Program-made: the position numbers and the translations under genes | From: a virus | Lineage: Duplodnaviria > Heunggongvirae > Uroviricota > Caudoviricetes | DNA: 34,202 nucleotides | Strand: one strand, 5' to 3' | IMG/VR virus record: IMGVR_UViG_2531839481_000004 | Span: 1 to 34,202 of that record | The notes under the pieces: model-generated | What the model saw: the letters and a program-made list of their open reading frames with translations, nothing else | Told to the model about the DNA's origin: nothing | The model's database searches: none | Shown here: one piece after another, positions 1 to 34,202 of the stretch | Position numbering within the stretch: position 1 is the first letter of the stretch | How the letters are laid out: each line of letters opens with the position of its first letter

Positions 1-1
1 A

Positions 2-19
2 AACCTGCCGTAGCAGGTT
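2..19 (-). terminator. possible ogr terminator hairpin, truncated by window edge
   Basis: inverted repeat aacctgc-cgta-gcaggtt immediately downstream of ogr stop; the T-tract would fall at or beyond position 1. Confidence 0.25.
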
Positions 20-26
20 CTCTTTC

Positions 27-245
27 TCAAAAATTCATATGCCCCTGACCACCTGGCAATGGATGTGGAGGAGCAGTAGCAATCAGTGCGGGTGTCACAA
101 TAAACCGGACCACTGTTTCATGGGTAACAAAAGTGCTCCCGCAGTTAATATTTTGGCACTGGCAGTAACGCTCTTTGGTGCTTTCAGTTACTTGAAAACT
201 GCTCCTTGTGTGTGCCGCATGACCACACTTTGGACAATTCATCAT
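27..245 (-). CDS. ogr: late-gene transcription activator, Ogr/B-type zinc finger (72 aa)
   Basis: MMNCPKCGHAAH...CQCQNINC...PHPLPGGQ matches the C4 zinc-finger pattern and length of P2 Ogr/186 B; ATG at 243-245 with SD; the track ORF 27-404 is a 5'-extended version. Confidence 0.85.
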   Translation of the reverse strand: MMNCPKCGHAAHTRSSFQVTESTKERYCQCQNINCGSTFVTHETVVRFIVTPALIATAPPHPLPGGQGHMNF

Positions 246-273
246 ATCCAGATCCCTACCTTTGCTATCAGAA

Positions 274-2589
274 TCATTGTAATGCTTCACTGACGGGACC
301 TGCCGCCGCTTTGAATCCTTCCACCACGCCACCAAGAAATGCGGTGATGGGTTGCCAGTATTTCCAGACAACCAGCGCCACGCCCGCCAGTGCAGTAACC
401 ACAAGACCTATCGGACTGAGCAGAGCACCTAACAGACCAGATACGGCATACAGGGCAACGCGCAGCATCGCCAGCGGACCGGATGCCAGCACACGAAGCA
501 CCACGCCTGCGGCAGCCAGTCCACCGCGCAGTACCGCCAGAGGATTCATAAACATCACAGCAACAGCACGTAAACCGGATAATCCAGACCGCAATAGTGC
601 AACCGGCGCACCTGCTACAGTTTTCAGGACATTCCCCGTCAGTGATGCCGTGCGACGCAAAGACGACAACGGCGCAGTAAGTAAACCCGCTGCGTTGCCC
701 GATGAAGCAAGCCCGCGTCGCAGCAGTGCCAGTGGTGCGCCAGCCAGCCAGGACAACGCGCTGCTGGTTCGGGTTACTGCTGCCGTAACGGAAGGTAACG
801 TTTTGATATCCAGCACAGAGAATCCCAGACGGATGACTGCCAGCGGCCCCAGCACTGCAGCCAGCGCCACCGCTAAGGTGCCGAGGCCTACGGTAACCGC
901 AGCCACAACAGCCGCTACTTTCATCAGTGTGCCTGTCAGTTCCGGGTTAGCTTCCACCCAGCGGCGCAACGCTCCCGTGATGCTTTTCACCGTGTACAGA
1001 ATATCCATCAGCGGCTGGCGCAGCGTTTCGCCCAGGCTGCTGAAGGTGTTCTGCGCTCCGGTTTTGACCAGCAACCACTGAGCAGAAAGTGAGTCTTTGT
1101 TGATGTCAGATTCTTTCTGCATGGAACCGAGCGCATCATTGCCCGCTGTCAGTTTTAGCTGGCGCTGCAGTTCCGGAAGGTTGTTTGCCAGTTTCGCCGC
1201 GTCATCACCAAACTCTTTACCAAACAACATGGTCATGGCAGACAGACGCTTGTCCTGCGGCAGTGCGTTCACCTTCTCCAGCACACGCTGGATAGTTCCC
1301 ATCGCATCCTTCGTCATCTGCTTTTCAATCACTTCAGGATTGAGTTTCAGCAGATTCATCCCTTCAAAGAAACTCTTGCTTTGCATGGTGGCAATGGACA
1401 ATTCACGCACCATCGCGTTTGCTGCACTGGCTGCAACCTCCGGCGCAGCGCCCAGTGTCAGAAAGGTGGAACCCAGTGCCGCCGCTTTACGATAATCCAG
1501 GCGGTCAGCTACACCGCCCAGACGTTGCATCACATCAATGATGTCCGCCCCTTTCGACATGGCGTTATCATCCAGATAGTTCAGCGCATCGCCGAGCTGT
1601 TCAATATTGCGGGTAGGTATTTTGTAGAGCTGGGCGATTTTCCCCAGACTTTCTGACAGTTCATCCGCTGGCAGCTCAAAGGCTGTTGCCGCCTTTGCTG
1701 CCGTACTGGCGAAGGCCAGCAGGTCACGTTTCTGGTCTTCCCAGCTGTCGTCAGGGTTTGCGACGTTCATGCGCGCACCTCCTTCAACCAGTGCAGCGAA
1801 GTCCACCGCACCGTTTTCCATCGGCAACTGTTCGCTGGCAGCCTTGATGGCATCCTGCATTTCATAAAAACGTGCAGTGCGGTTGCCATTATCGTCACGC
1901 AGACCATTGACCTGCTTTGCCACACCTTTCATGGCATCTTCCATGCTGGTATAGCTTTTTACTGCCGCCATCACTGGCGCACCCATTGCCAGCCCTGCAG
2001 CCGTGGTAGTGGCTCCGGCTCCTGCGATGCGATCGCGCACTTCAAGCCGTCTTGAGTATTGTTCTCTGGCAGCGTTCATCCGTGCCTGTTGTTCACCCAG
2101 ACGTTTAAGTGCTTTTTGCTGGCCCTCCAGTGCCTGCCTTGTTTCTTCAGCATTTTTCTTAAGTTCTCGCTGGGCACTACTGAGTTGTCTGGTATCAATC
2201 CCTGATTCTTTAAGTGCCTGACGTTGTCTCTGGACCGCCCCCAACAAGCCGTTATAGGTCTGCTGAAGTTCCTGTACTCGTGTTTTGGCCTGACTGAATA
2301 ACTTTGCCTGCGCGGCGGTTGGCCTGTTAGTGGCAGCAAATTGTGTGGCGAGTTTTGCCGCCTCTTCGCGGGCTGCGTTCAGGTTGTTGGCTGTTATGGC
2401 TAGTTGCGAGCGCGTCTTGCGAAATTCATCAATTCTGCCAGCCTGCTTATTCAGTTCTTTGAGGCTGTTTCGGGTATTCTGAATTGCGCCAGCCAGCTCT
2501 TTCGAACTGGCCTGTGCAGCACGGAATGGGCGGGTGAGTTTGTCAACCGCATTAAGAATGACCTGCAGGCGCAGGTTGTTATCACTCAT
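274..2589 (-). CDS. tail tape measure protein (gpT-like), possibly C-terminally truncated
   Basis: 771 aa, coiled-coil-rich N-terminal half, Gly/Ala/Leu-rich hydrophobic repeats in C-terminal third; start ATG overlaps the E' stop (gATGAgtga) as in P2. Confidence 0.8.
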   Translation of the reverse strand: MSDNNLRLQVILNAVDKLTRPFRAAQASSKELAGAIQNTRNSLKELNKQAGRIDEFRKTRSQLAITANNLNAAREEAAKLATQFAATNRPTAAQAKLFSQAKTRVQELQQTYNGLLGAVQRQRQALKESGIDTRQLSSAQRELKKNAEETRQALEGQQKALKRLGEQQARMNAAREQYSRRLEVRDRIAGAGATTTAAGLAMGAPVMAAVKSYTSMEDAMKGVAKQVNGLRDDNGNRTARFYEMQDAIKAASEQLPMENGAVDFAALVEGGARMNVANPDDSWEDQKRDLLAFASTAAKAATAFELPADELSESLGKIAQLYKIPTRNIEQLGDALNYLDDNAMSKGADIIDVMQRLGGVADRLDYRKAAALGSTFLTLGAAPEVAASAANAMVRELSIATMQSKSFFEGMNLLKLNPEVIEKQMTKDAMGTIQRVLEKVNALPQDKRLSAMTMLFGKEFGDDAAKLANNLPELQRQLKLTAGNDALGSMQKESDINKDSLSAQWLLVKTGAQNTFSSLGETLRQPLMDILYTVKSITGALRRWVEANPELTGTLMKVAAVVAAVTVGLGTLAVALAAVLGPLAVIRLGFSVLDIKTLPSVTAAVTRTSSALSWLAGAPLALLRRGLASSGNAAGLLTAPLSSLRRTASLTGNVLKTVAGAPVALLRSGLSGLRAVAVMFMNPLAVLRGGLAAAGVVLRVLASGPLAMLRVALYAVSGLLGALLSPIGLVVTALAGVALVVWKYWQPITAFLGGVVEGFKAAAGPVSEALQ

Positions 2590-3018
2590 CGTTGGCCCCG
2601 CATCTCTGAATCGCTTTATACCGCCATTCCAGCACTTCGGTCAGCGGCATAACGTCAGTAACGGATGGCGGCCAGTGAAAAATGGTGGCGATATCTGCCA
2701 CCAGATCATCAACCGTCAGGCTGTCGGTAAACCGGCAAGCACCGACTTCTTCAACAAAAAAGTGACAACCTCAACCGACATGGCAGTGAGATCTGCCGGG
2801 TCCATCTCTGCAATTTCCTGTGCAGTCAGTGCCGGACTGGAGATGCGGGGGATCACGGTCATCATCGCGTTTACATCCATATCCATAATGGCCTGCAGGC
2901 GTGTACCGCGCAGCGCACCGGACTGCGGTTTACGCAGCACAATTTCGGTGATTTCTGTTTTACCGCGCTTGATGGGGGTATCCAGTTGAATGGTCTTTTC
3001 AGTCTGCTTATCGCTCAT
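2582..3018 (-). CDS. gpE+E' frameshift-extended tail chaperone (-1 frameshift at T_TTT_TTG, plus-strand 2755-2761)
   Basis: zero-frame codons ACT TTT TTG; the -1 frame stays open for ~58 codons and stops at TGA overlapping the T start codon. Confidence 0.6.
2716..3018 (-). CDS. tail assembly chaperone gpE
   Basis: 100 aa, position between tail tube gene and tape measure; contains slippery heptamer. Confidence 0.8.
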   Translation of the reverse strand: MSDKQTEKTIQLDTPIKRGKTEITEIVLRKPQSGALRGTRLQAIMDMDVNAMMTVIPRISSPALTAQEIAEMDPADLTAMSVEVVTFLLKKSVLAGLPTA

Positions 3019-3072
3019 TTTGCTGTCCTGTAAATTGGGTTCTGGCGCGGTATCCCGCGCCGTTCAGATATA

Positions 3073-3588
3073 TCAGAGGCCGAGGGCGTTGCGGTGCGCT
3101 TCCATCAGGTCCACACCGTCCACAATTTCCACCATGTTGATAAGGTCCACTTCATAGAGCACCTCACCATTGATGGTCAGCTTCGCGTAGCTGTTGGTAC
3201 TGGTCACTTTGGTGGTGTTGCTTTCGCCCGTCTTCCACTCGCCGGAATCCACTTCTTTGTGACGTCCACGCACCACAAGCTCCACGGCCTGCACTTCTCC
3301 GGTATCGTCACGCTGGATAGAGCCGGTAAAGCGCAACTGGATGCCATCCACCGTGGCTTTGCCCATCTGCTTAAACAGCAGCAGTTCAGTACCACCAATG
3401 GAAAATTCTGTATCCAGTGCACTGTCATCCAGTCCCAGATCCACATCAACTGCACCAGGCATTCCGCCGCCGCGATACTTCTCATATTTGCGGGTGAATT
3501 TCGGCAGCGTCAGCGACTCTACGATCCCCTGCCAGTTGTTCCCGTCGTTAAACAGGTTCAGATGTTTTAATTTGCGTGGTAAAGCCAT
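3073..3588 (-). CDS. major tail tube protein (gpFII-like)
   Basis: 171 aa, synteny after sheath gene, resembles P2 FII. Confidence 0.9.
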   Translation of the reverse strand: MALPRKLKHLNLFNDGNNWQGIVESLTLPKFTRKYEKYRGGGMPGAVDVDLGLDDSALDTEFSIGGTELLLFKQMGKATVDGIQLRFTGSIQRDDTGEVQAVELVVRGRHKEVDSGEWKTGESNTTKVTSTNSYAKLTINGEVLYEVDLINMVEIVDGVDLMEAHRNALGL

Positions 3589-3597
3589 GTTGTCCCC

Positions 3598-4770
3598 TTA
3601 CGCGCTTACCTGGCTGGCGAAATTCACCAGGTACTGATCGGTGATGCGCTGGCGCAGCATCAGATTTTCAAGTGGCGGCACTGGCGTGTAGTCATAGTCG
3701 ATGGTGAGTTTTCCGGCTTTCAGCGTGTCTTTGTCGTTCACCGACTCATCCAGCCAGCAATCACCACCAATGAGATAGCCCTGACTGACCAGGCTGCGCA
3801 TTTTGGCGCGGATACCTTCGATAATGTCGCGCGCCAGCGACGGGTTCAGCGGTTTGTCCACCGCCCACATGTGCGCTTCTGCCATTGTGTCCATCAGTAC
3901 CTGCGCTGTGCGGGTGTAGTTTTCGAAGGCAAAAAGCGGGTCATCACTCAGACAGCGGGAACCCCAGAAGCGGAAACCGTCTTTGCGGATAAGCGTGGTA
4001 ACGTCGTTCTGGTTAAGCAGACCTGCATCGGTTGCCGGGTCCTGCAGATCCCAGAACACATCAGCAGAAATTCCGGTGACACCGTTCACTCCCACGTTGG
4101 ACAGGCTTTTGTGCCATCCGGTCTGCTCGTCAATTTTGGCGCGCAGACCAAGCGCACGGGCGGTGGCATATGCCGTTGCTTCGGCATTCAGCGCCGTGTC
4201 CCAGCCAGTAAAGTCAGGCCAGATCAGCATCCCTTCGCGCTGGCTGAAGTTTTCGCGGTAAGTGATCGCCTCCTGTACTGTCTTGCAGCCATACGCTGAC
4301 AGGTAAGCAAACCCACGCAGGCTTTGCGCCACACTCAGCAACTCAGTAGCAACGGCTTTGTTATCGTGACCTGGCACGCCGAGAATGCGCGGTTTAACGC
4401 CGAGCTGTGTCTGGGCAGATAACAGGGCTTTCATGCCTGTTTTTTTACCTTCAGCAGTCACTGCGCCGATGATATTGGTCGTGGTTTCTTCTTCCGTTTC
4501 ACCCTGCGGCACACGCACAACAACGGTCACGGGTTTTGCCTGGTCAGCGATGGCATCCAGCGAACGGGCCAGCGTGCCGGACTCACCCGCTTTACCGCTG
4601 GCAGTCAGCACATCAGTGATCAGCACGGGTTTATTAAGAGGAAACATTTTTGCATCGGCATCATCGCCCGTGCAGACCATACCCACGATGGCGGTGCTCA
4701 CCGTGGTAATGGATCGGGTGCCTTCGTTGATTTCAACAACGCGCACCCCGTGGTGGTAATCCTGAGCCAT
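3598..4770 (-). CDS. contractile tail sheath protein (gpFI-like)
   Basis: 390 aa, synteny, resembles P2 FI. Confidence 0.9.
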
Positions 4771-4846: not shown

Positions 4847-4864
4847 TGTACAGTTATTCACACA
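4847..4864 (-). promoter_or_regulatory. Ogr/B-type late promoter activator site (TGT-N12-ACA) upstream of FI
   Basis: tgtacagttattcacaca, about 85 bp upstream of the FI start. Confidence 0.45.
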
Positions 4865-4912: not shown

Positions 4913-5479
4913 TCAGGGGGATTCATTGCTCTTATTTGCCGGAAATTTTCTATAAATGGTAGAAACGCCCACATCAAAAATCAGTGCAATACGCTGTCTT
5001 GATTCTCCGGCCTCGAGTAAACGTCCAATCTGTGCCCACTGTTCGGTGGTCAACTTAGGACGGCGTCCACCTACTCTGCCTTTGGCGCGAGCTGCAGCAA
5101 GCCCCGCCCTGGTACGTTCAACTATCAGTTCGCGCTCCATTTCAGCCAGGGCCCCCATGACATGAAAAAAGAAACGGCCCATTGGGGTACTGGTATCAAT
5201 ACTGTCAGTCAGGCTTCGGAAATTCACGCCACGCTGGCGCAGATCTTCTATCAGCGTAACGAGATGCCGCATACTGCGCCCCAACCTGTCCAGCTTCCAG
5301 ACAACCAGAGTGTCACCTGCCGATAATGTCCTGAGCAGTTTTTTCAGTCCCGGTCTGTCGGACTTAGTGCCACTGATTTTGTCCTCAAAAATCCGCTCAC
5401 ATCCCGCGCAGTTCAGTGCATTACGTTGCAAATCGGTGTTCTGGTCATTTGTTGACACGCGTACATAGCCAATAAGCAT
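4913..5479 (-). CDS. serine DNA invertase (Hin/Gin/Cin/Pin family)
   Basis: MLIGYVRVSTNDQ catalytic N-terminus (Ser in VRVST), C-terminal HTH; ATG at 5477-5479 (track start at 5485 is TTG). Confidence 0.9.
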   Translation of the reverse strand: MLIGYVRVSTNDQNTDLQRNALNCAGCERIFEDKISGTKSDRPGLKKLLRTLSAGDTLVVWKLDRLGRSMRHLVTLIEDLRQRGVNFRSLTDSIDTSTPMGRFFFHVMGALAEMERELIVERTRAGLAAARAKGRVGGRRPKLTTEQWAQIGRLLEAGESRQRIALIFDVGVSTIYRKFPANKSNESP

Positions 5480-5536
5480 GATCAATCCCCTGAATAAAAA
5501 CCGGGGATGATGCCAGTTAGTCGTAATCGCTGCATT

Positions 5537-5560
5537 TTCTTAAACGTTGGTTTGGGAGAA
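5537..5560. repeat. invertase crossover site (gix/cix-like), left
   Basis: ttcttaaacgttggtttgggagaa; shares ttggtttgggagaa with the reverse complement of 7426-7451 and resembles the Gin gix sequence class. Confidence 0.65.
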
Positions 5561-5920
5561 GCGGCAAAACGGGATGTGGGGACAGGGGAAAATCAGATAC
5601 CGGACATGGCCTCTTTTGCCAGTGGTGATGGATGGATGAAATTACCCAACGGGAAAATCCTGCAATATGGTCGTGGTGCGGTTACGCCGACATTATCGAC
5701 GCAAACAATGAGAATTACATTCAGCATCCCTTTCCCCAAAAAAGCGGACTGCGCCATGCTTACTCATTCTGGTGATGGCGGTGCGCCTTTAGGCGCTGGG
5801 CGAGGGTTCGTGATGACTGCAGAAGGCCCAACGTTAACCGGCTTTAATTCTGCTTACAGAACGTCATCAACCAGCGACACGGTATCGATGAATTACAGTT
5901 GGTGGGCTGTTGGTGAGTAA
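5561..5920 (+). CDS. alternative tail-fibre C-terminal variable segment (silent orientation; would fuse to the H constant region after inversion)
   Basis: reading frame continues through the crossover site; GLGE motif at the junction matches LGLGEG in H at the other crossover site. Confidence 0.55.
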   Translation, partial: AAKRDVGTGENQIPDMASFASGDGWMKLPNGKILQYGRGAVTPTLSTQTMRITFSIPFPKKADCAMLTHSGDGGAPLGAGRGFVMTAEGPTLTGFNSAYRTSSTSDTVSMNYSWWAVGE

Positions 5921-5940
5921 TTTTATTCAGGGTGATTTAT

Positions 5941-6384
5941 ATGAACGAATATGTTTATAGCGCAAGGCATAATGCTTTTTTCCCTGTGGATATGATTGAT
6001 AAATATAAATCAGAGGGATGGGATTTATCAGATGCTAAGGAAGTGAATCAAAATATTATCAGTGAGTTTATGGCTGAACCGCCACAAGGAAAAATCCGTA
6101 TTGCCGGAAATGATGGGCTGCCTGCGTGGGCAGATATTCCTCCACCCACGCATGAAGAGCTTATTGAAATTACTGAATCAGAAAGACAGCTATTAATTAA
6201 CCAGGCCAACGAATACATGAACAGTAAACAATGGCCCGGTAAAGCCGCTATTGGTCGTCTGAAAGGTGACGAACTGGCGCAATATAATTTGTGGCTGGAT
6301 TATCTGGACGCACTGGAGCTGGTCGATACTTCCGGTGCGCCAGATATTGAATGGCCTACGCCTCCGGCAGTTCAGGCCAGATGA
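5941..6384 (+). CDS. alternative tail fibre assembly chaperone (Tfa')
   Basis: C-terminus LDYLDALELVDTSGAPDIEWP parallels the C-terminus of 6356-6958; ATG with AGGGTGA SD (track start at 5932 is GTG). Confidence 0.7.
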   Translation: MNEYVYSARHNAFFPVDMIDKYKSEGWDLSDAKEVNQNIISEFMAEPPQGKIRIAGNDGLPAWADIPPPTHEELIEITESERQLLINQANEYMNSKQWPGKAAIGRLKGDELAQYNLWLDYLDALELVDTSGAPDIEWPTPPAVQAR

Positions 6385-6958
6385 CATCCGGCGCGGTGCT
6401 GGTATCTGTTGCCGTCACCGCGTCAATGTAATCCAGCACAGCGTTAAGGCGGGTTGTTTCTGCCTGCGTCAGTTTACGTCCGGCCTGCAATTTCAGCTGA
6501 ATCAGACTGATGGAGGCCATTGCAGTATCAATCAGCGACTGGCGCTGTGCTTCTGCTGCATCTACTGCTGCGCCGTGCTGTGCCTCGGTATCCGTCACCC
6601 ATTTCTCACCATCCCATTTATCGTATGGCGTTAACGGGGCGATAGTGGTTGTATTATCAGGGTAATCACCCGGAGCTGTGATTTCTTTTGATTCCCCTGT
6701 TTTGGTGCTAAAAACGATTTCACCGCGATGGTCTGGCACATATTCCCATGAGTTTAAATCCATCGAACGGCAGATAGCATAACCCGCCTTATGTGTGCCA
6801 GGGGCATCTAAACAGGAATATGCAGGGATACCGACACCAATGGCAAGAAATTCATTTGAAGTGGAAATATATTCCCGAGTTTCACCATCATAGTTATAGA
6901 CGGTAATATTCCCCGCCTTCGTGGCAATAAGCTCGCTATTTAATACGGCGTTATCCAT
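6356..6958 (-). CDS. tail fibre assembly chaperone (gpG/Tfa-like)
   Basis: 200 aa, conserved Tfa C-terminus VLDYIDAVTATDTSTAPDVIWP, immediately after H. Confidence 0.8.
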   Translation of the reverse strand: MDNAVLNSELIATKAGNITVYNYDGETREYISTSNEFLAIGVGIPAYSCLDAPGTHKAGYAICRSMDLNSWEYVPDHRGEIVFSTKTGESKEITAPGDYPDNTTTIAPLTPYDKWDGEKWVTDTEAQHGAAVDAAEAQRQSLIDTAMASISLIQLKLQAGRKLTQAETTRLNAVLDYIDAVTATDTSTAPDVIWPELPEA

Positions 6959-8487
6959 TATGCAGCCCTCACGATAAAGTTAAATGCAATATTTCGTGGA
7001 CGGGTTTCACTCCCGCCAGTATTACCGATACTCCCTCGTGAATGAAGTGTCGGTGATGGGATCAGACTCCCTCCTGTATTTGTGGCATCAAGCCCCCGTC
7101 CTTGTGTGTATGTCTTTTTGAAAATCGTAGCCAGTTCCCATTCATCTTTTGTGTCGTAACCATCATTGGCAACAACAATATGACGGTGCTTTTCCAGCAT
7201 CCCAGCCTGAAGGCTCAATAAAGCACGTCCTGCATCAATACCGCGCCCATCATCCCAGCCACGAATAAATTCACCTCGTAAATCAGGCAATTTATTTGTC
7301 GGGTAAGCCTTTGCCAGTTCCGGGTATTCTTCAGCAGAAAAAGCCGCCCCGTTGCATTTCAGCCAGCCTGTTGGAGGTGTCTCTGAAGGCCACGGAACAG
7401 GCGCACCAACAGGTAATGCTGAACCTTCTCCCAAACCAAGGTATGCGAGAAGACCAGCTACATCCTTTCCACTCAAATTAGTCAGCGTATTGTCCAGCGG
7501 TTGTTTACCTGCTAGCGCATTAAGCATTGTCGTGGCAAAGTTCGGGTCATTCCCCAGCGCCGCCGCCAGTTCGTTCAATGTATCCAGTGCCGCAGGTGCA
7601 GAACCCACCATTCCTGCAATCGCCGATTTCACAAAAGCCGTAGTGGCAATCTGTGTATTGTTGACCGACTGTGCCGCAGTAGGTGCTGTTGGCGTTCCGG
7701 TAAGTGCCGGACTCGACAGCGGCGCTTTCAGTGCCAGCGCATTATTAATAGTGGTACTGAATTTCGGGTCATTGTTAATGGCTGCGGCAATTTCTTTCAG
7801 TGTGTCCAGCGTGGCTGGCGCACCGTTAATCAGAGCAGTAATAGCGGCCTGAACAAACTCTGTGGTCGCAATTCGAGTGGTGTTATTTCCTGCTGCAGGC
7901 GTCGGCGCTTTTGGTTCTCCGGTAAATGTCGGATTATGTTTCTGCGCATACTGGGTATGAGGATCTTGTGCGGCAATGTGGTTTCTCATCTGGTCATCCA
8001 CATACAGCTTTAATTCCAGGACTTTATCATCCACGTATTTACGGGTTGCCAGCACTACAGCAGGGTCGATTTTCAGGATGATATTGTCCGTGCTGCTGGT
8101 AATCAGCACCATGCGCACGGTCTGGGTACGCCCGCTGCCTTCAGCCAGTTGCGGCTTATAGCTTTCCGGGCAGTTTCCCACGGCAATCAATGCCCCGGAC
8201 TCATCAAACAGGCCCACTTCACGTATCCACCAACCGCCCTCGTTTTCAGGGATCACCTGTTCAGCAATAATCTGGCTACTGTTCTGCGGGTCGATATAAA
8301 GCATATTCAGCGCAGCCCGGCGTTTCTCATTTACCAGTGCCGTCTGCTTTGCGTCCGGCGTTGGCAATACTCCGCCGCCATCGCCCACCGCCATATGGGT
8401 AATTTTTAGCGGCACACCGAGCGCGGCGGCGCTGGCAAGTTTCGCTGCGCCAATATCCGTCAGCAGGGTATAAAATTTTGTGCTCAT
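6958..8487 (-). CDS. tail fibre protein (gpH-like), constant N-terminal part plus currently expressed variable C-terminus
   Basis: 509 aa, internal fibre repeats, crossover site inside the coding region at about aa 346-354. Confidence 0.85.
   Translation of the reverse strand: MSTKFYTLLTDIGAAKLASAAALGVPLKITHMAVGDGGGVLPTPDAKQTALVNEKRRAALNMLYIDPQNSSQIIAEQVIPENEGGWWIREVGLFDESGALIAVGNCPESYKPQLAEGSGRTQTVRMVLITSSTDNIILKIDPAVVLATRKYVDDKVLELKLYVDDQMRNHIAAQDPHTQYAQKHNPTFTGEPKAPTPAAGNNTTRIATTEFVQAAITALINGAPATLDTLKEIAAAINNDPKFSTTINNALALKAPLSSPALTGTPTAPTAAQSVNNTQIATTAFVKSAIAGMVGSAPAALDTLNELAAALGNDPNFATTMLNALAGKQPLDNTLTNLSGKDVAGLLAYLGLGEGSALPVGAPVPWPSETPPTGWLKCNGAAFSAEEYPELAKAYPTNKLPDLRGEFIRGWDDGRGIDAGRALLSLQAGMLEKHRHIVVANDGYDTKDEWELATIFKKTYTQGRGLDATNTGGSLIPSPTLHSRGSIGNTGGSETRPRNIAFNFIVRAA
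7426..7451. repeat. invertase crossover site (gix/cix-like), right, inside H
   Basis: ttctcccaaaccaaggtatgcgagaa; inverted relative to 5537-5560. Confidence 0.65.
7495..7875 (-). repeat. tandem ~55-aa tail-fibre repeat within H (two copies)
   Basis: RIATTEFVQAAITALINGAPATLDTLKEIAAAINNDPKFSTT... versus TQIATTAFVKSAIAGMVGSAPAALDTLNELAAALGNDPNFATT... Confidence 0.6.
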
Positions 8488-10957: not shown

Positions 10958-10975
10958 TGTATCAGTGCTGATACA
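10958..10975 (-). promoter_or_regulatory. Ogr/B-type late promoter site (perfect dyad TGTATCAG-TG-CTGATACA) upstream of V
   Basis: TGT-N12-ACA dyad in the S-V intergenic region. Confidence 0.45.
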
Positions 10976-16865: not shown

Positions 16866-16883
16866 TGTACCGACAACCACACA
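16866..16883. promoter_or_regulatory. Ogr/B-type late promoter site in the divergent O/P control region
   Basis: TGTACCGACAACCACACA (TGT-N12-ACA). Confidence 0.45.
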
Positions 16884-16929
16884 AACCGCAGGCGGGGAAA
16901 GCCTTCATTCAAGGCTGTAGGTTTGTGCC

Positions 16930-18696
16930 ATGAACACCACACTGACACCCGCAGATCTCGATCCCCGTCGGCAGGCCATGCTGCTGTACTTTCAGGGATA
17001 CCGCGTCGCCCGCATTGCTGAAATGCTGGGCGAGAAAGTTGCAACCGTTCATAGCTGGAAAAAACGCGACAAGTGGGGTGACTATGGGCCGCTGGATCAG
17101 ATGCAGCTCACCACCGCCGCACGCTACTGCCAGCTCATTATGAAGGAGCACAAAGAAGGGAAAGATTTCAAAGAGATTGACCTGCTGGCGCGCCAGTCGG
17201 AGCGCCACGCGCGCATCGGCAAGTTTAACAATGGCGGCAACGAAGCCGACTTAAACCCTAACGTCGCCAACCGCAACAAAGGCCCGCGCCGTCAGCCGGA
17301 AAAGAATGTTTTCACCGATGAACAGATTGAGAAGCTGGAAGAAATATTCCATTCCTCCATGTTCAACTACCAGCGCCACTGGTGGGAAGCCGGAAAAACC
17401 AATCGCATCCGCAACCTGCTGAAGTCTCGCCAGATCGGCGCGACCTTTTACTTTGCCCGTGAAGCCCTGATTGACGCCCTGCTGACCGGGCGTAACCAGA
17501 TTTTCCTTTCTGCCAGCAAGGCTCAGGCTCACGTCTTTAAACAGTACATCATCGACTTTGCCAAAGAAGTAGAGGTGGAGCTGAAAGGCGATCCGATGGT
17601 GCTTCCTAACGGGGCCACGCTTTACTTCCTCGGCACCAATGCCCGCACGGCCCAGAGTTACCACGGCAACCTGTATCTGGATGAATATTTCTGGATACCG
17701 AAATTCCAGGAGCTGCGCAAAGTGGCTTCCGGTATGGCTATTCACAAAAAATGGCGACAAACCTATTTTTCCACGCCATCCAGTCTGACACACAGTGCTT
17801 ATCCGTTCTGGTCCGGTGCGCTGTTCAACCGTGGGCGCAACAAAGCCGATAAGGTGGACATCGACCTGTCCCACAGCAATCTGGCCCCCGGCCTGCTGTG
17901 CGCAGACGGGCAATACCGCCAGATAGTCACCGTGGAAGATGCGGTGCGCGGCGGCTGTAACCTGTTCGACCTTGACCAGTTGCGCATGGAGTACAGCCCG
18001 GACGAATACCAGAACCTGCTGATGTGCGAGTTTGTGGACGATCTCGCGTCCGTGTTCCCGCTCAGCGAGCTGCAGGCGTGCATGGTAGACAGCTGGGAAA
18101 TCTGGACCGACTTTCATGCACTGGCGCTGCGCCCGTTTGGCTGGCGCGAAGTGTGGATCGGTTATGACCCGGCAAAAGGTACGCAGAACGGCGACAGTGC
18201 CGGATGCGTGGTGGTGGCACCGCCAGCCGTACCAGGTGGTAAGTTCCGCATTCTTGAGCGTCACCAGTGGCGCGGAATGGACTTCCGCGCCCAGGCTGAC
18301 GCCATCAAAAAACTGACCGAACAGTATAACGTGACCTACATCGGCATCGACTCAACCGGCGTTGGTCACGGGGTTTACGAGAACGTGAAAGCGTTTTTTC
18401 CTGCCGTCAGGGAGTTTGTCTACAACCCCAACGTTAAAAACGCCCTGGTACTCAAGGCCTACGACATTATCAGCCACCGCCGTCTGGAGTTTGACGCCGG
18501 ACACACCGACATAGCGCAGTCATTTATGGCAATCCGTCGCGCCACCACCGCCAGCGGCAACCGCCCGACCTATGAAGCCAACCGCAGCGAAGAAGCCAGC
18601 CATGCCGATCTGGCCTGGGCAACAATGCACGCACTGTTTAACGAACCGCTGCAGGGCGAGTCCGCCAATACCAGCAATATTGTGGAGATTTTTTGA
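16930..18696 (+). CDS. terminase large (ATPase) subunit gpP
   Basis: 588 aa, synteny, divergent from O. Confidence 0.9.
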   Translation: MNTTLTPADLDPRRQAMLLYFQGYRVARIAEMLGEKVATVHSWKKRDKWGDYGPLDQMQLTTAARYCQLIMKEHKEGKDFKEIDLLARQSERHARIGKFNNGGNEADLNPNVANRNKGPRRQPEKNVFTDEQIEKLEEIFHSSMFNYQRHWWEAGKTNRIRNLLKSRQIGATFYFAREALIDALLTGRNQIFLSASKAQAHVFKQYIIDFAKEVEVELKGDPMVLPNGATLYFLGTNARTAQSYHGNLYLDEYFWIPKFQELRKVASGMAIHKKWRQTYFSTPSSLTHSAYPFWSGALFNRGRNKADKVDIDLSHSNLAPGLLCADGQYRQIVTVEDAVRGGCNLFDLDQLRMEYSPDEYQNLLMCEFVDDLASVFPLSELQACMVDSWEIWTDFHALALRPFGWREVWIGYDPAKGTQNGDSAGCVVVAPPAVPGGKFRILERHQWRGMDFRAQADAIKKLTEQYNVTYIGIDSTGVGHGVYENVKAFFPAVREFVYNPNVKNALVLKAYDIISHRRLEFDAGHTDIAQSFMAIRRATTASGNRPTYEANRSEEASHADLAWATMHALFNEPLQGESANTSNIVEIF

Positions 18697-19770: not shown

Positions 19771-21435
19771 CTATAAATTGAATTTATGCATTCTTAACTC
19801 ATTCAATTTACTCTCTCTAGAAATCTTCATTAAAGCAGCCTTAGCTTTTATAGAAACAGATCTCGTTTTCTCATTTACATTACCAATACGACTAAATTTC
19901 AGACAAGTAGCAACGTGGGATGTTAAATGATTCCCATGCAAACTTTTAAAATAATGATAATAATCATCTTCAGTAGCGCTACTTAATACTTCTATATCAT
20001 CATCATTCCAGCCATTTTTTCCACTGAGCGCATCCAACACCTCACCTAAAGTGCGCTTGGGTGAATCAGTTAGATACACACCTTTAAATTTCTCAATGAT
20101 TTCTGCATCTTTGATTGGTCTAAAAAGATAAAAATTATCCAGATCAAATAACTCTATTTCACTTCGTCTTTCTTGAATATAATACGTAATCATCTCAGAT
20201 GCCTTTGTATCTTCTCCTAGTTCACGGAAGACCCCAACAAGGCTATCAAGATCATTAGGAGATACTTGAGTTACACAATCCATAAAGCACTTATAAAAAT
20301 GAGAAACAACTTCTTCTACATTATCATCAAAACTATTATGAAATAAATCCCATGCACTTCTAAATGAGTTTGACTTTTTATTTTCTAAAGCCTGTTTATT
20401 TATAATTTTTATTGCCTCATTAAACTCTGTCATATCTATATAACCATTCCTGACTAGCTTTGCTATTTTCCTATCCAGCTCATCAACCCTTGTAAAATTA
20501 TAGCTCAGTAAAATATCCTTCCATTTTTTTTCTTCTTCTGTTACATCCTTTTTGCCTATTGAGTAAATACTTTCCATAGATTCGAGGAAATCCAAAGAGG
20601 GAACATCCTTATCTGATTTAGAGCAATAATAGGCCCAATTCATTAATACAACCGTATGCAAAAATTGCATTTTAACTTCACTTTCGCACTCTTCAAAAGC
20701 TCGCCATGCATTTTCTACGTTTCGCTCTATTTTCTTTAAAACTCTAATATTTTTGATGCCTAACGAAATAGTATATTGTGCTAACGGCTTATGAAAATCC
20801 TTACTATTATCATATGCTATCTGTGCAGATTCACTGGGCGTAGGTGAAAAATGCAACTCAATGTCAATTACTTTTTCTTTAAACTTTTCATAATCAGCAA
20901 CTTCTTTAGTACCATCATTGAGTAAAAGTATAACCTTACATTTCTTTTGTTCTTTTAACAAAGAAATAAGACCTAATACATCTTTAAGTTCTAATGACGA
21001 TCCTTTACGCTCTAAATCATCTATGCAAATTAATGAATCTGACACAGACATAAATGACCATGCTTCTATTGCAGGAGCGGCAGACTTTATATACGGCAGC
21101 TCTTTCAATTTACTCCACGAACCTCGCCCCAATATTTCAAGCATACCTAATGTATTTTTTCTTAAACTATCTAGACTTGGCTCATGTCCTATGGAGTCTT
21201 TTGAAACTGCATTTTCAAAAATGGAATATTTTAATCTATCTAACGAAGATATACCGAAAAGAGAGACATAGGAATAATGCGAAGCAGAAATCATATTTTG
21301 ACACTTTGCTTCCAGAAGAAACTTATTCCAACTAAATGTCTTACCAACTCCCCACTCTCCTTTAATTGCCATAACCGAAGGGGCTGATTTAGAAACAAAG
21401 TTTAGAATTTGTTCTCGTACCAAGCTTAGCGACAT
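19771..21435 (-). CDS. KAP-type P-loop NTPase (554 aa), accessory cargo gene
   Basis: Walker A GEWGVGKT (aa 26-33, nt ~21337-21360), Walker B-like LICIDDLER, no obvious TM helices, AT-rich, ATG with AAGGAG SD. Confidence 0.7.
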   Translation of the reverse strand: MSLSLVREQILNFVSKSAPSVMAIKGEWGVGKTFSWNKFLLEAKCQNMISASHYSYVSLFGISSLDRLKYSIFENAVSKDSIGHEPSLDSLRKNTLGMLEILGRGSWSKLKELPYIKSAAPAIEAWSFMSVSDSLICIDDLERKGSSLELKDVLGLISLLKEQKKCKVILLLNDGTKEVADYEKFKEKVIDIELHFSPTPSESAQIAYDNSKDFHKPLAQYTISLGIKNIRVLKKIERNVENAWRAFEECESEVKMQFLHTVVLMNWAYYCSKSDKDVPSLDFLESMESIYSIGKKDVTEEEKKWKDILLSYNFTRVDELDRKIAKLVRNGYIDMTEFNEAIKIINKQALENKKSNSFRSAWDLFHNSFDDNVEEVVSHFYKCFMDCVTQVSPNDLDSLVGVFRELGEDTKASEMITYYIQERRSEIELFDLDNFYLFRPIKDAEIIEKFKGVYLTDSPKRTLGEVLDALSGKNGWNDDDIEVLSSATEDDYYHYFKSLHGNHLTSHVATCLKFSRIGNVNEKTRSVSIKAKAALMKISRESKLNELRMHKFNL

Positions 21436-21528
21436 AACTCACTCCTTGATTGCGAATGTTAATTATATATTTTACCAAAAATCTTAATCACCACCTATAG
21501 AAAGGTGAAAGATGGGTGCTGGCGCGCG

Positions 21529-21547
21529 CTCGTATCCCCGCCACGCC
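21529..21547 (-). other. candidate cos cohesive-end sequence
   Basis: minus strand GGCGTGGCGGGGATACGAG followed by CGCGCGC; first 13 nt identical to the remembered 186 cohesive end, orientation relative to Q as in P2. Confidence 0.45.
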
Positions 21548-21569
21548 TGCCCGCTTTATGTAGTGGTTT

Positions 21570-21672
21570 TCATGCACCTGCATGTTCTACGTAAAAGCCC
21601 GCTAGTTCTGGCGAGCCTTAGCAAAAACGATCCTTAAACGATCATGCGATTTCATGCAGCATAGTCATGCAC
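21570..21672. repeat. cluster of four TCATGC(A) motifs including the palindrome CATGCACCTGCATG
   Basis: copies at ~21570, 21642, 21652 and 21665; palindrome at 21571-21584. Confidence 0.3.
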
Positions 21673-21869
21673 TGTCTAAGAGAAGTGAAAGTCCGTATCT
21701 GAATGACCACTTGAGAAACGAAACATACAGACTTACAAAGATGAAGCTCTACTGTGAGCGAGGAACATACATAGTTGCTCTGTAATAGCCAAATTTTAAG
21801 CAGGAAATCTCTTTTTTATGACAAAACTATAAAGAAAAACAGACCGTTTCATCGCTCGATGAAAATATA

Positions 21870-23447
21870 CTACAATACTTTTCTCTCGATGGTATTTTTA
21901 ATGGTCAACATATCTTTAGGAATACTTTTTTTCCCCTCTATACGTATGGTAAACACAAAAAGAATAACGGCTGATCTCACAATTTTCATGAGTTGTAAGA
22001 GCTGTTTCTCAAACTTTTCTTTCTCAATAAACCTCACCTCATCAAAAAATCCATAAGAATTATATAAATCAACTAACATGTCTTTCTCGTGAATAACTAA
22101 CAGTTTATGTTCTAAATCATTCCTCCATTCTTTAAAAAAAGCAAGCTCACCATTTTTATCATTCAAATCCATAGCAATACTAAACAAACCCAGCAATCCT
22201 TTATTATTTATTTTGTTTATTTTAAGCTTTCTTTTTTCATCACTAATCCGCCAGAAGTTATGAAAGTATATATGTCCTCTATCTGGTTTTAAATCAAATA
22301 ATTGACACAGAGCAACTGCTATTTTATCCAAGATACCAAAGCAAGCTCTAAATGCAACCCTTAACTTCTCAACATTTTCATACAATATTTCTCCATTATA
22401 CAATTCAGAATAACATACCTCCGAATCCTCATCAAAAAACTCACTATCAACCTTATATTCAAAAAACATTTTTCGTGCTAAGGAATACTCAGCTTTAAGT
22501 CTATTTAACACCATTTCCATTGGCACTATAAAATCACCAAACACACCTTCCTCGGTGGTCGCAATAGTTATATTATCTTTAGATGACGCATAACAATTGC
22601 AATATAGCGAATGATCAGACAACATTAGATTATTATCTATACAAAACCTCTGGTAGTTTGATAAAGTATCATACTCCTCCTGCGTGAGCCTTTCATCTGT
22701 ACTTATATCCTCTATGCCATATACACATGATTCACTCAATATACTTTCGTTGTACTTTATTTTTCTTTGAAGAGCAACCTTCCATGAAGGAAAACATTTC
22801 CCTGACTTTATTGCACACTCATAACCTCGAATAACTTCTTTAATCATTTTATATGTATATGTTGTAGATAATTCATTAAGCAATTCTAATGCCTCAGATC
22901 TGTTTACCCACGCCTGAGGAATTGAGTTATCAATAGATATTGCTTGTTCATAATAATCCATTGATTCAGACATACGATATTGTTTTTTTAATACATTAGC
23001 TAGATTAACTATTAAATCAGGGGGCACCCATCCATCTTCTTGTGAAAGTTTAAACGCTTTCCAGTAATTATTTTTTACATCATTCAGCTTAATGAAACTA
23101 TCAATATCTGCATTGTCATTAGGATTAAAATCAAGAACTGCGCTCATTCCATTTGCCAAGTTATAGTAATATAAGGATTCTTTCATTATAGTCAGAAATT
23201 CATTTTTATTGTTTATAAAGATATTTAAGCCTTCCTCCGCTATATTTTTTACATTACTAAAATTTCCGATATCAATAAGATTTCCGGCCAAATTAGATAA
23301 TATAATTATTCTATTTTCTTTGATTGTATTTATCTCATCGATACCGTTAAGAATATCCTTTACATTTTTATAGGCAGAATCAAATGAACCTGCATTAATA
23401 AGATCATCTACGACCCCCATTTTTGAAACAACATAGTTGATATCCAT
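21870..23447 (-). CDS. 525-aa protein with helical-repeat N-terminal region and C-terminal HEPN-like domain (Rx4H motif WRNDLEHK), accessory cargo gene
   Basis: ATG with AGAGGA SD; strongly AT-rich; R442-x4-H447 motif (nt ~22107-22124); occupies the tin/old position between cos and A. Confidence 0.65.
   Translation of the reverse strand: MDINYVVSKMGVVDDLINAGSFDSAYKNVKDILNGIDEINTIKENRIIILSNLAGNLIDIGNFSNVKNIAEEGLNIFINNKNEFLTIMKESLYYYNLANGMSAVLDFNPNDNADIDSFIKLNDVKNNYWKAFKLSQEDGWVPPDLIVNLANVLKKQYRMSESMDYYEQAISIDNSIPQAWVNRSEALELLNELSTTYTYKMIKEVIRGYECAIKSGKCFPSWKVALQRKIKYNESILSESCVYGIEDISTDERLTQEEYDTLSNYQRFCIDNNLMLSDHSLYCNCYASSKDNITIATTEEGVFGDFIVPMEMVLNRLKAEYSLARKMFFEYKVDSEFFDEDSEVCYSELYNGEILYENVEKLRVAFRACFGILDKIAVALCQLFDLKPDRGHIYFHNFWRISDEKRKLKINKINNKGLLGLFSIAMDLNDKNGELAFFKEWRNDLEHKLLVIHEKDMLVDLYNSYGFFDEVRFIEKEKFEKQLLQLMKIVRSAVILFVFTIRIEGKKSIPKDMLTIKNTIERKVL

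Positions 23448-33125: not shown

Positions 33126-34202
<1,077 letters not shown>

Follow-up and report, generated by a model that had tools for sequence, protein, structure and literature searches.

A 2381-bp microhomology deletion removes the tape-measure end, U and D from a P2/186-like prophage of Escherichia coli

The stretch of DNA analysed here (the window, 34.2 kb; 34,202 nt) is, from its ORF listing and from sequence comparisons, a P2/186-like prophage of E. coli. We found that it lacks 2381 bp that are present, on alignment, in the intact prophage of E. coli AF5, and that this deletion has defined end points and a defined content and is inherited in a bacterial lineage. The best explanation, to which we assign a probability of about 0.93, is that a P2/186-like prophage integrated at ssrA, close to phage Cartapus, was disabled by one microhomology-mediated deletion. 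A single illegitimate event at the tetranucleotide AATG would have taken the end of the tape-measure gene T, the genes U and D and 29 bp of the spacer ahead of the late activator gene ogr, leaving the truncated gene (T′) 28 bp from ogr.

The deletion junction and the sequence lost

In the ORF listing, the 771-aa T′ occupies minus-strand positions 274..2589, its stop codon being 274-276, and ogr, which encodes a late-gene activator of the Ogr/Delta zinc-finger type, occupies positions 27..245 on the same strand (72 aa; Pfam Ogr_Delta, PF04606, E 9e-21), with its coding sequence intact. The interval between the T stop and the ogr start is 28 bp (246..273), so that the ORF listing agrees with the first-pass annotation, which had placed the end of T at 274 and the beginning of ogr at 245. 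The same annotation had proposed that U and D are missing between the two genes, and this was upheld both by the ORF listing and by a tblastn search of the window's six reading frames, with U, D and the T C-terminus of the intact relative as queries, where the best match had an E-value of 0.76. Because of this result, the three are not relocated within the window, and U or D elsewhere in the prophage, which had been named as evidence against a loss, was not found in the window by tblastn. A 125-aa ORF (27..404, minus strand) was considered as a T-ogr fusion and rejected, as the ogr frame is open upstream to a TTG while T occupies another frame and stops at 274. Just 3′ of ogr, a GC-rich hairpin (2..19) lies between ogr and a convergent BRCT-domain gene that is outside the window; by analogy with 186, which has the annotated terminator tB at the equivalent position, this hairpin is likely a terminator.

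The prophage at ssrA in E. coli AF5 (NZ_OZ547033.1, locus L003) is an intact sister with the same integration site, cargo and ogr. The window and AF5 are 99.98-99.99% identical across the whole window, in four collinear blocks without gaps and with six mismatches in total, two of which fall in the few bases where the alignment overruns the junction. The DNA of window 1-284 is 100% identical to AF5, and the AF5 counterpart of ogr is annotated as WP_000980501.1 at the same coordinates. AF5 has a full T (1025 aa), U, D, ogr and a complete 68-bp D-ogr spacer, amounting to 2381 bp more than the window, and its invertible tail-fibre segment has the opposite orientation; the deletion and this inversion are the only two structural differences between the prophages. 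As the earlier reading had held, the lysogeny, replication and cargo genes have been kept, and they match AF5 without indels, as do the head and lysis genes. Base 1 of the window is the first base past the BRCT-domain gene in AF5, and, at the other end, base 34202 is the outermost one of glaH, a gene contained entirely in the window. Since the window ends coincide with AF5 gene boundaries, the ssrA-side end of the prophage (BRCT-domain gene and att site) lies outside the window. The cargo (19771..23447) consists of two genes in the P2 variable hotspot, between the replication gene A and the portal gene Q. The product of one is a P-loop NTPase of 554 aa with a match to PDC-S49, a candidate defence family of PADLOC (E 1e-29); that of the other, 525 aa long, carries the AF5 annotation LA2681-family HEPN protein. 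The two are possibly an anti-phage system retained by the defective prophage.

The junction falls on a 4-bp microhomology, AATG (281..284), a copy of which borders the missing 2381 bp on either side (AF5 L003 2620-2623 and 5001-5004). The window reads CAGAATCATTGT-AATG-CTTCACTGACGGG across the junction, where AF5 reads CAGAATCATTGT-AATG-ATACACAAAA on the ogr side and AAGCGGTTCG-AATG-CTTCACTGACGGG on the T side. A single AATG copy is left in the window, both flanks are 100% identical to AF5 with zero extra bases, and the junction contains no filler or mobile-element sequence, as expected of a microhomology deletion. The alignment with AF5, in which exactly 2381 bp are absent, thus supports the earlier proposal that a deletion fused the 3′ region of T to the region upstream of ogr, and no observation speaks against the deletion itself. 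Gene loss by illegitimate recombination at a 4-bp microhomology is a textbook mechanism. The opposite polarity, in which the T-ogr arrangement is ancestral and U-D was inserted in AF5, was rejected, given that T is cut mid-protein in the window and that T-U-D is present in 960 genomes, in Cartapus and in 186.

The sequence lost comprises T codons 770-1025 (256 codons), the complete U and D genes and, from the 68-bp D-ogr spacer, 29 bp. The deleted U protein matches Pfam Phage_P2_GpU (E 6e-44) and the deleted D protein matches Pfam Phage_GPD, the baseplate hub (E 6e-27). T′ is made up of residues 1-769 of the 1025-aa AF5 T followed by L-Q-stop, and it is not a full-length tape measure; the suspicion that T might be 3′-truncated was therefore correct, residues 770-1025 having been replaced by L-Q-stop. 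The T′ DNA is 100% identical to AF5 from L003 5001..6220 and onward, and residues 246-457 match Pfam PhageMin_Tail. The T ORF had also been said to stop inside a hydrophobic repeat region, which is not the case: the hydrophobic block spans residues ~551-750, is internal in the intact protein, and ends ~20 residues before the actual end of T′. The argument from size holds in so far as T′ is shorter than P2 T, but it is weak. P2 T has ~815 aa and is only ~5% longer than the 771 residues of T′. In 186, the P2 T homologue G has 812 aa (186 record), and T in the window's lineage has 1025 aa, which is the proper size comparator for T′.

Predicted consequences for late transcription and tail assembly

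We then considered the ogr upstream region, taking the 186 GenBank annotation as the source for the promoter, as a literature search on the ogr/B promoter gave nothing usable. In that annotation, pB, the promoter of the late activator gene B (TTCACA-17-TATCAT), lies inside the 66-bp D-B spacer and overlaps two CI binding sites, and tB ends transcripts from pB and from the late promoter. The intact spacer of AF5, Cartapus and 01G17CRGN001 contains a look-alike of pB, TTCTCA-16-TATCAT (L003 2612..2666). In the window, 39 bp are left between the deletion end point and the ogr ATG, and this remnant of the spacer (246..284, minus strand) holds the ogr ribosome-binding region and only the CAT of the pB-like -10; the -35 has been lost, as have the first three bases of the -10, so that TATCAT has become AAGCAT with GC-rich T sequence upstream. 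Sequence comparison and a consensus scan revealed no sigma-70 -35/-10 pair of the 186 pB type in the window's spacer, and across window 1-700 the ogr strand gave no promoter-like hit in the scan. Upstream of ogr, at a distance of 32-37 bp, a TACAAT hexamer persists, which might allow some ogr transcription. The removal of the -35 and half of the -10 suggests that ogr is probably without its own promoter, together with whatever repressor sites overlapped it, a consequence that is absent from the first-pass annotation. In terms of mechanism, the pB-like promoter would have been partly lost along with part of the stretch that binds CI in 186, and ogr would then be read only by read-through from the Ogr-dependent FI promoter.

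Upstream of FI (4847..4864) lies a TGT-N12-ACA dyad that, by its motif and placement, is of the type of the Ogr-dependent late promoters of P2, and it is probably the only promoter still placed to transcribe ogr, by read-through. As the FI promoter needs Ogr, late transcription overall (heads, lysis and tails) is probably impaired, and we lean towards late expression as a whole being crippled in this way. Further TGT-N12-ACA dyads are found upstream of V (10958-10975) and in the divergent O/P region (16866-16883 and 16924-16941). The dyads at FI, V and O (capsid scaffold)/P (terminase) occupy the expected places of P2's four Ogr-dependent late promoters, but the motif occurs 7 times in the whole window against 9 expected, which is not above chance, and so what is suggestive is where the sites lie, not their number.

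In P2, amber mutants define T, U and D as essential genes of the tail. By cryo-EM of P2, three gpD form the hub and six gpU on top of it form the tube initiator that joins the hub to the tube, while the tape measure lies in the tube lumen with a three-helix bundle toward the spike (bioRxiv 10.64898/2026.09.14.750843). With hub, tube initiator and the C-terminus of the tape measure all missing, the baseplate core would be unable to form; with no baseplate core, the tail tube and sheath would not be polymerised, and infectious particles would not be made unaided. The structural roles of gpU and gpD hence argue that the prophage has lost tail assembly and yields no infectious particles unless a helper complements it; U, D and full T could be provided in trans by another P2-like prophage. 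The lysogeny, replication and cargo genes are unaffected. For annotation, this means that a complete-looking 34-kb prophage should be scored as defective, with a late activator that is probably promoter-less, even though a predictor based on counts of phage genes would likely report it as intact.

Inheritance of the deletion and alternative readings

Within one E. coli lineage, the deletion is an allele passed on clonally. The identical 771-aa T′ is encoded on 12 contigs, among them GCA_000353065.1, GCA_004568555.1 and several independent read-set assemblies, and the 40-mer across the junction has an exact match in 4/4 retrieved loci (L005-L008), which come from assemblies of different projects. 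These four loci are 99.98-100% identical to the window and all adjoin smpB in the same chromosomal context; in AF5, ssrA lies between smpB and the prophage. In one of them (GCA_004568555.1, L006 1..127), the invertible tail-fibre segment adjoins one end of an IS1 at ~window 6037, an insertion that represents further decay after the T-U-D deletion. Phages that share the T-ogr junction, which had been named as evidence against a deletion, were found neither among phage records nor among IMG/VR contigs: 0 phage records cover at least 80% of window 1-420, and the exact 40-mer had no match in IMG/VR or in the GTDB species-representative genomes, a result that shows absence from those collections only. 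None of 5,426 complete E. coli genomes carries this junction (query window 1-700), and that search yielded AF5, which is intact, and one independent deletion.

Some match to the ogr-D-U-T block is found in 1329 complete E. coli genomes, of which 960 have at least 80% of it, and T-U-D is therefore the norm. In the other matching genomes, remnants end at many different positions; examples are the D fragments in BL21 and C43(DE3), prophages whose essential morphogenesis genes have been lost. This spectrum indicates that deletional decay of P2-like prophages is commonplace. In 01G17CRGN001 (NZ_CM148329.1, L002 3818..6532), a T′-U-D deletion of 2436 bp is found at the same ssrA site; it keeps the last 61 bp of D and the pB-like promoter, and T is broken at another codon. 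As the end points differ from those in the window, the two deletions are independent events. An IS3 lies in the adjacent BRCT-domain gene of 01G17CRGN001.

The window, as a single assembly, could in principle contain a misjoined or collapsed T-ogr junction in place of a true T-U-D, and scaffold L005 does have an N gap nearby, though this gap is in the invertible segment and not at the junction. However, the junction shared by four assemblies and by the 12 contigs encoding the 771-aa product implies that the deletion is genuine and inherited clonally, and that no misassembly is involved; a 4-bp repeat cannot collapse an assembly, and the flanks are unique sequence with 100% identity, which leaves an artefact scarcely credible. 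A real deletion could also have been selected, because a harmless prophage that has no tails, and probably no Ogr-driven lysis, still keeps its defence cargo. The second independent deletion of nearly the same block in 01G17CRGN001 points in this direction, as do the persistence of the deleted lineage across several assemblies and the match of the cargo P-loop NTPase to a PADLOC candidate defence family. Nevertheless, there are two events only, one in the 5,426 complete genomes (1,329 with part of the block) plus the window, which fits neutral decay; remnants with many other end points also exist, and 01G17CRGN001 keeps its pB-like promoter, so a loss of ogr expression is not common to both. 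We consider selection unlikely. The broader proposal, that T′-U-D is a recurrent selected deletion target in ssrA P2-like prophages, favouring immune, cargo-bearing lysogens that are unable to finish lysis, is no less doubtful; if it were true, the simultaneous loss of the ogr promoter would reinforce the effect in the window's lineage.

It is similarly improbable that the element is still mobile in a satellite-like manner, keeping its heads, packaging, replication and ogr while taking T, U and D from a P2-like phage resident in the same cell. Such a life would suit the intact state of all other late genes, the frequent occurrence of several P2-like prophages in one E. coli genome, with as many as 6-7 matching places, and the invertase that still flips the fibre segment within the deletion lineage, and the probable loss of the ogr promoter would be irrelevant if the helper gives Ogr. 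Yet the window by itself gives no sign of a helper, assembly could be disturbed by T′, and the locus looks like random decay, with many differing remnants elsewhere and an IS1 insertion in one lineage member. In summary, the deletion is ordinary prophage decay in a recently inactivated element, which reveals no new biology and would leave a specialist unsurprised. It does provide a clean, datable first step of decay, in the form of a single 2381-bp deletion set against a 99.99% identical sister, and the window/AF5 pair could be used for an isogenic comparison of induction lethality and of the contribution of the cargo genes.

Family membership and comparison with P2, 186 and Cartapus

The rest of the tail operon is intact in the window. 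On the minus strand, it contains the sheath gene FI (3598..4770), the tube gene FII (3073..3588), E (2716..3018) and the frameshift part E′ (2582..2701), and the Pfam domains Phage_sheath_1, Phage_tube, Phage_TAC_7, Phage_P2_GpE and PhageMin_Tail occur in order. The late tail operon FI-FII-E-E′-T thus has the P2 order expected of the Peduoviridae, and an Ogr/Delta activator stands at the operon end; the gpU and gpD genes expected between T and ogr are missing from the window, whereas AF5, Cartapus and 186 have them. The element is hence a deletion derivative of a P2/186-like member of the Peduoviridae, and not a complete member.

A Gin/Hin-type invertase gene (4913..5485, minus strand) adjoins an invertible tail-fibre segment (5544..7439; the whole module spans window 4913..7451), which is flanked by 27-nt inverted repeats (5535-5561 and 7425-7451). 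In the orientation found in the window, H is a complete 509-aa ORF (6958..8487, minus strand). The segment is in the opposite orientation in both AF5 and L006, indicating that it still flips in lysogens, and this inversion is ordinary phase variation.

The closest named phage record is that of Escherichia phage Cartapus (Peduoviridae, Elveevirus cartapus; OV696611 / NC_070909), which shares with the window ~96-98% DNA identity (ogr, T-FII), the order FI-FII-E-E′-T and a Gin-type invertase. Window 281-3100 is 97.8% identical to T-E-FII of Cartapus and window 1-290 is 95.9% identical to its ogr, the two match places being ~2.4 kb apart in Cartapus, and all matches in the phage collection break at the junction. 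Cartapus is intact, with a T of 3078 nt (1025 aa), a U of 486 nt and a D of 1101 nt followed by ogr, and its genes beside the integrase differ from those of the window. In 186, the order is G(T)-F(U)-D-pB-B(ogr)-tB, the same gene order as in the intact lineage (and likewise in P2), the position of ogr and the layout of the promoter in the short spacer agree with 186 and P2 as well, and both 186 and the window's lineage have a terminator hairpin after the activator gene; compared with 186, the window is without the U/D homologues and the promoter -35. Most decayed P2-like remnants are far more eroded than this prophage, which has lost only 2.4 kb.
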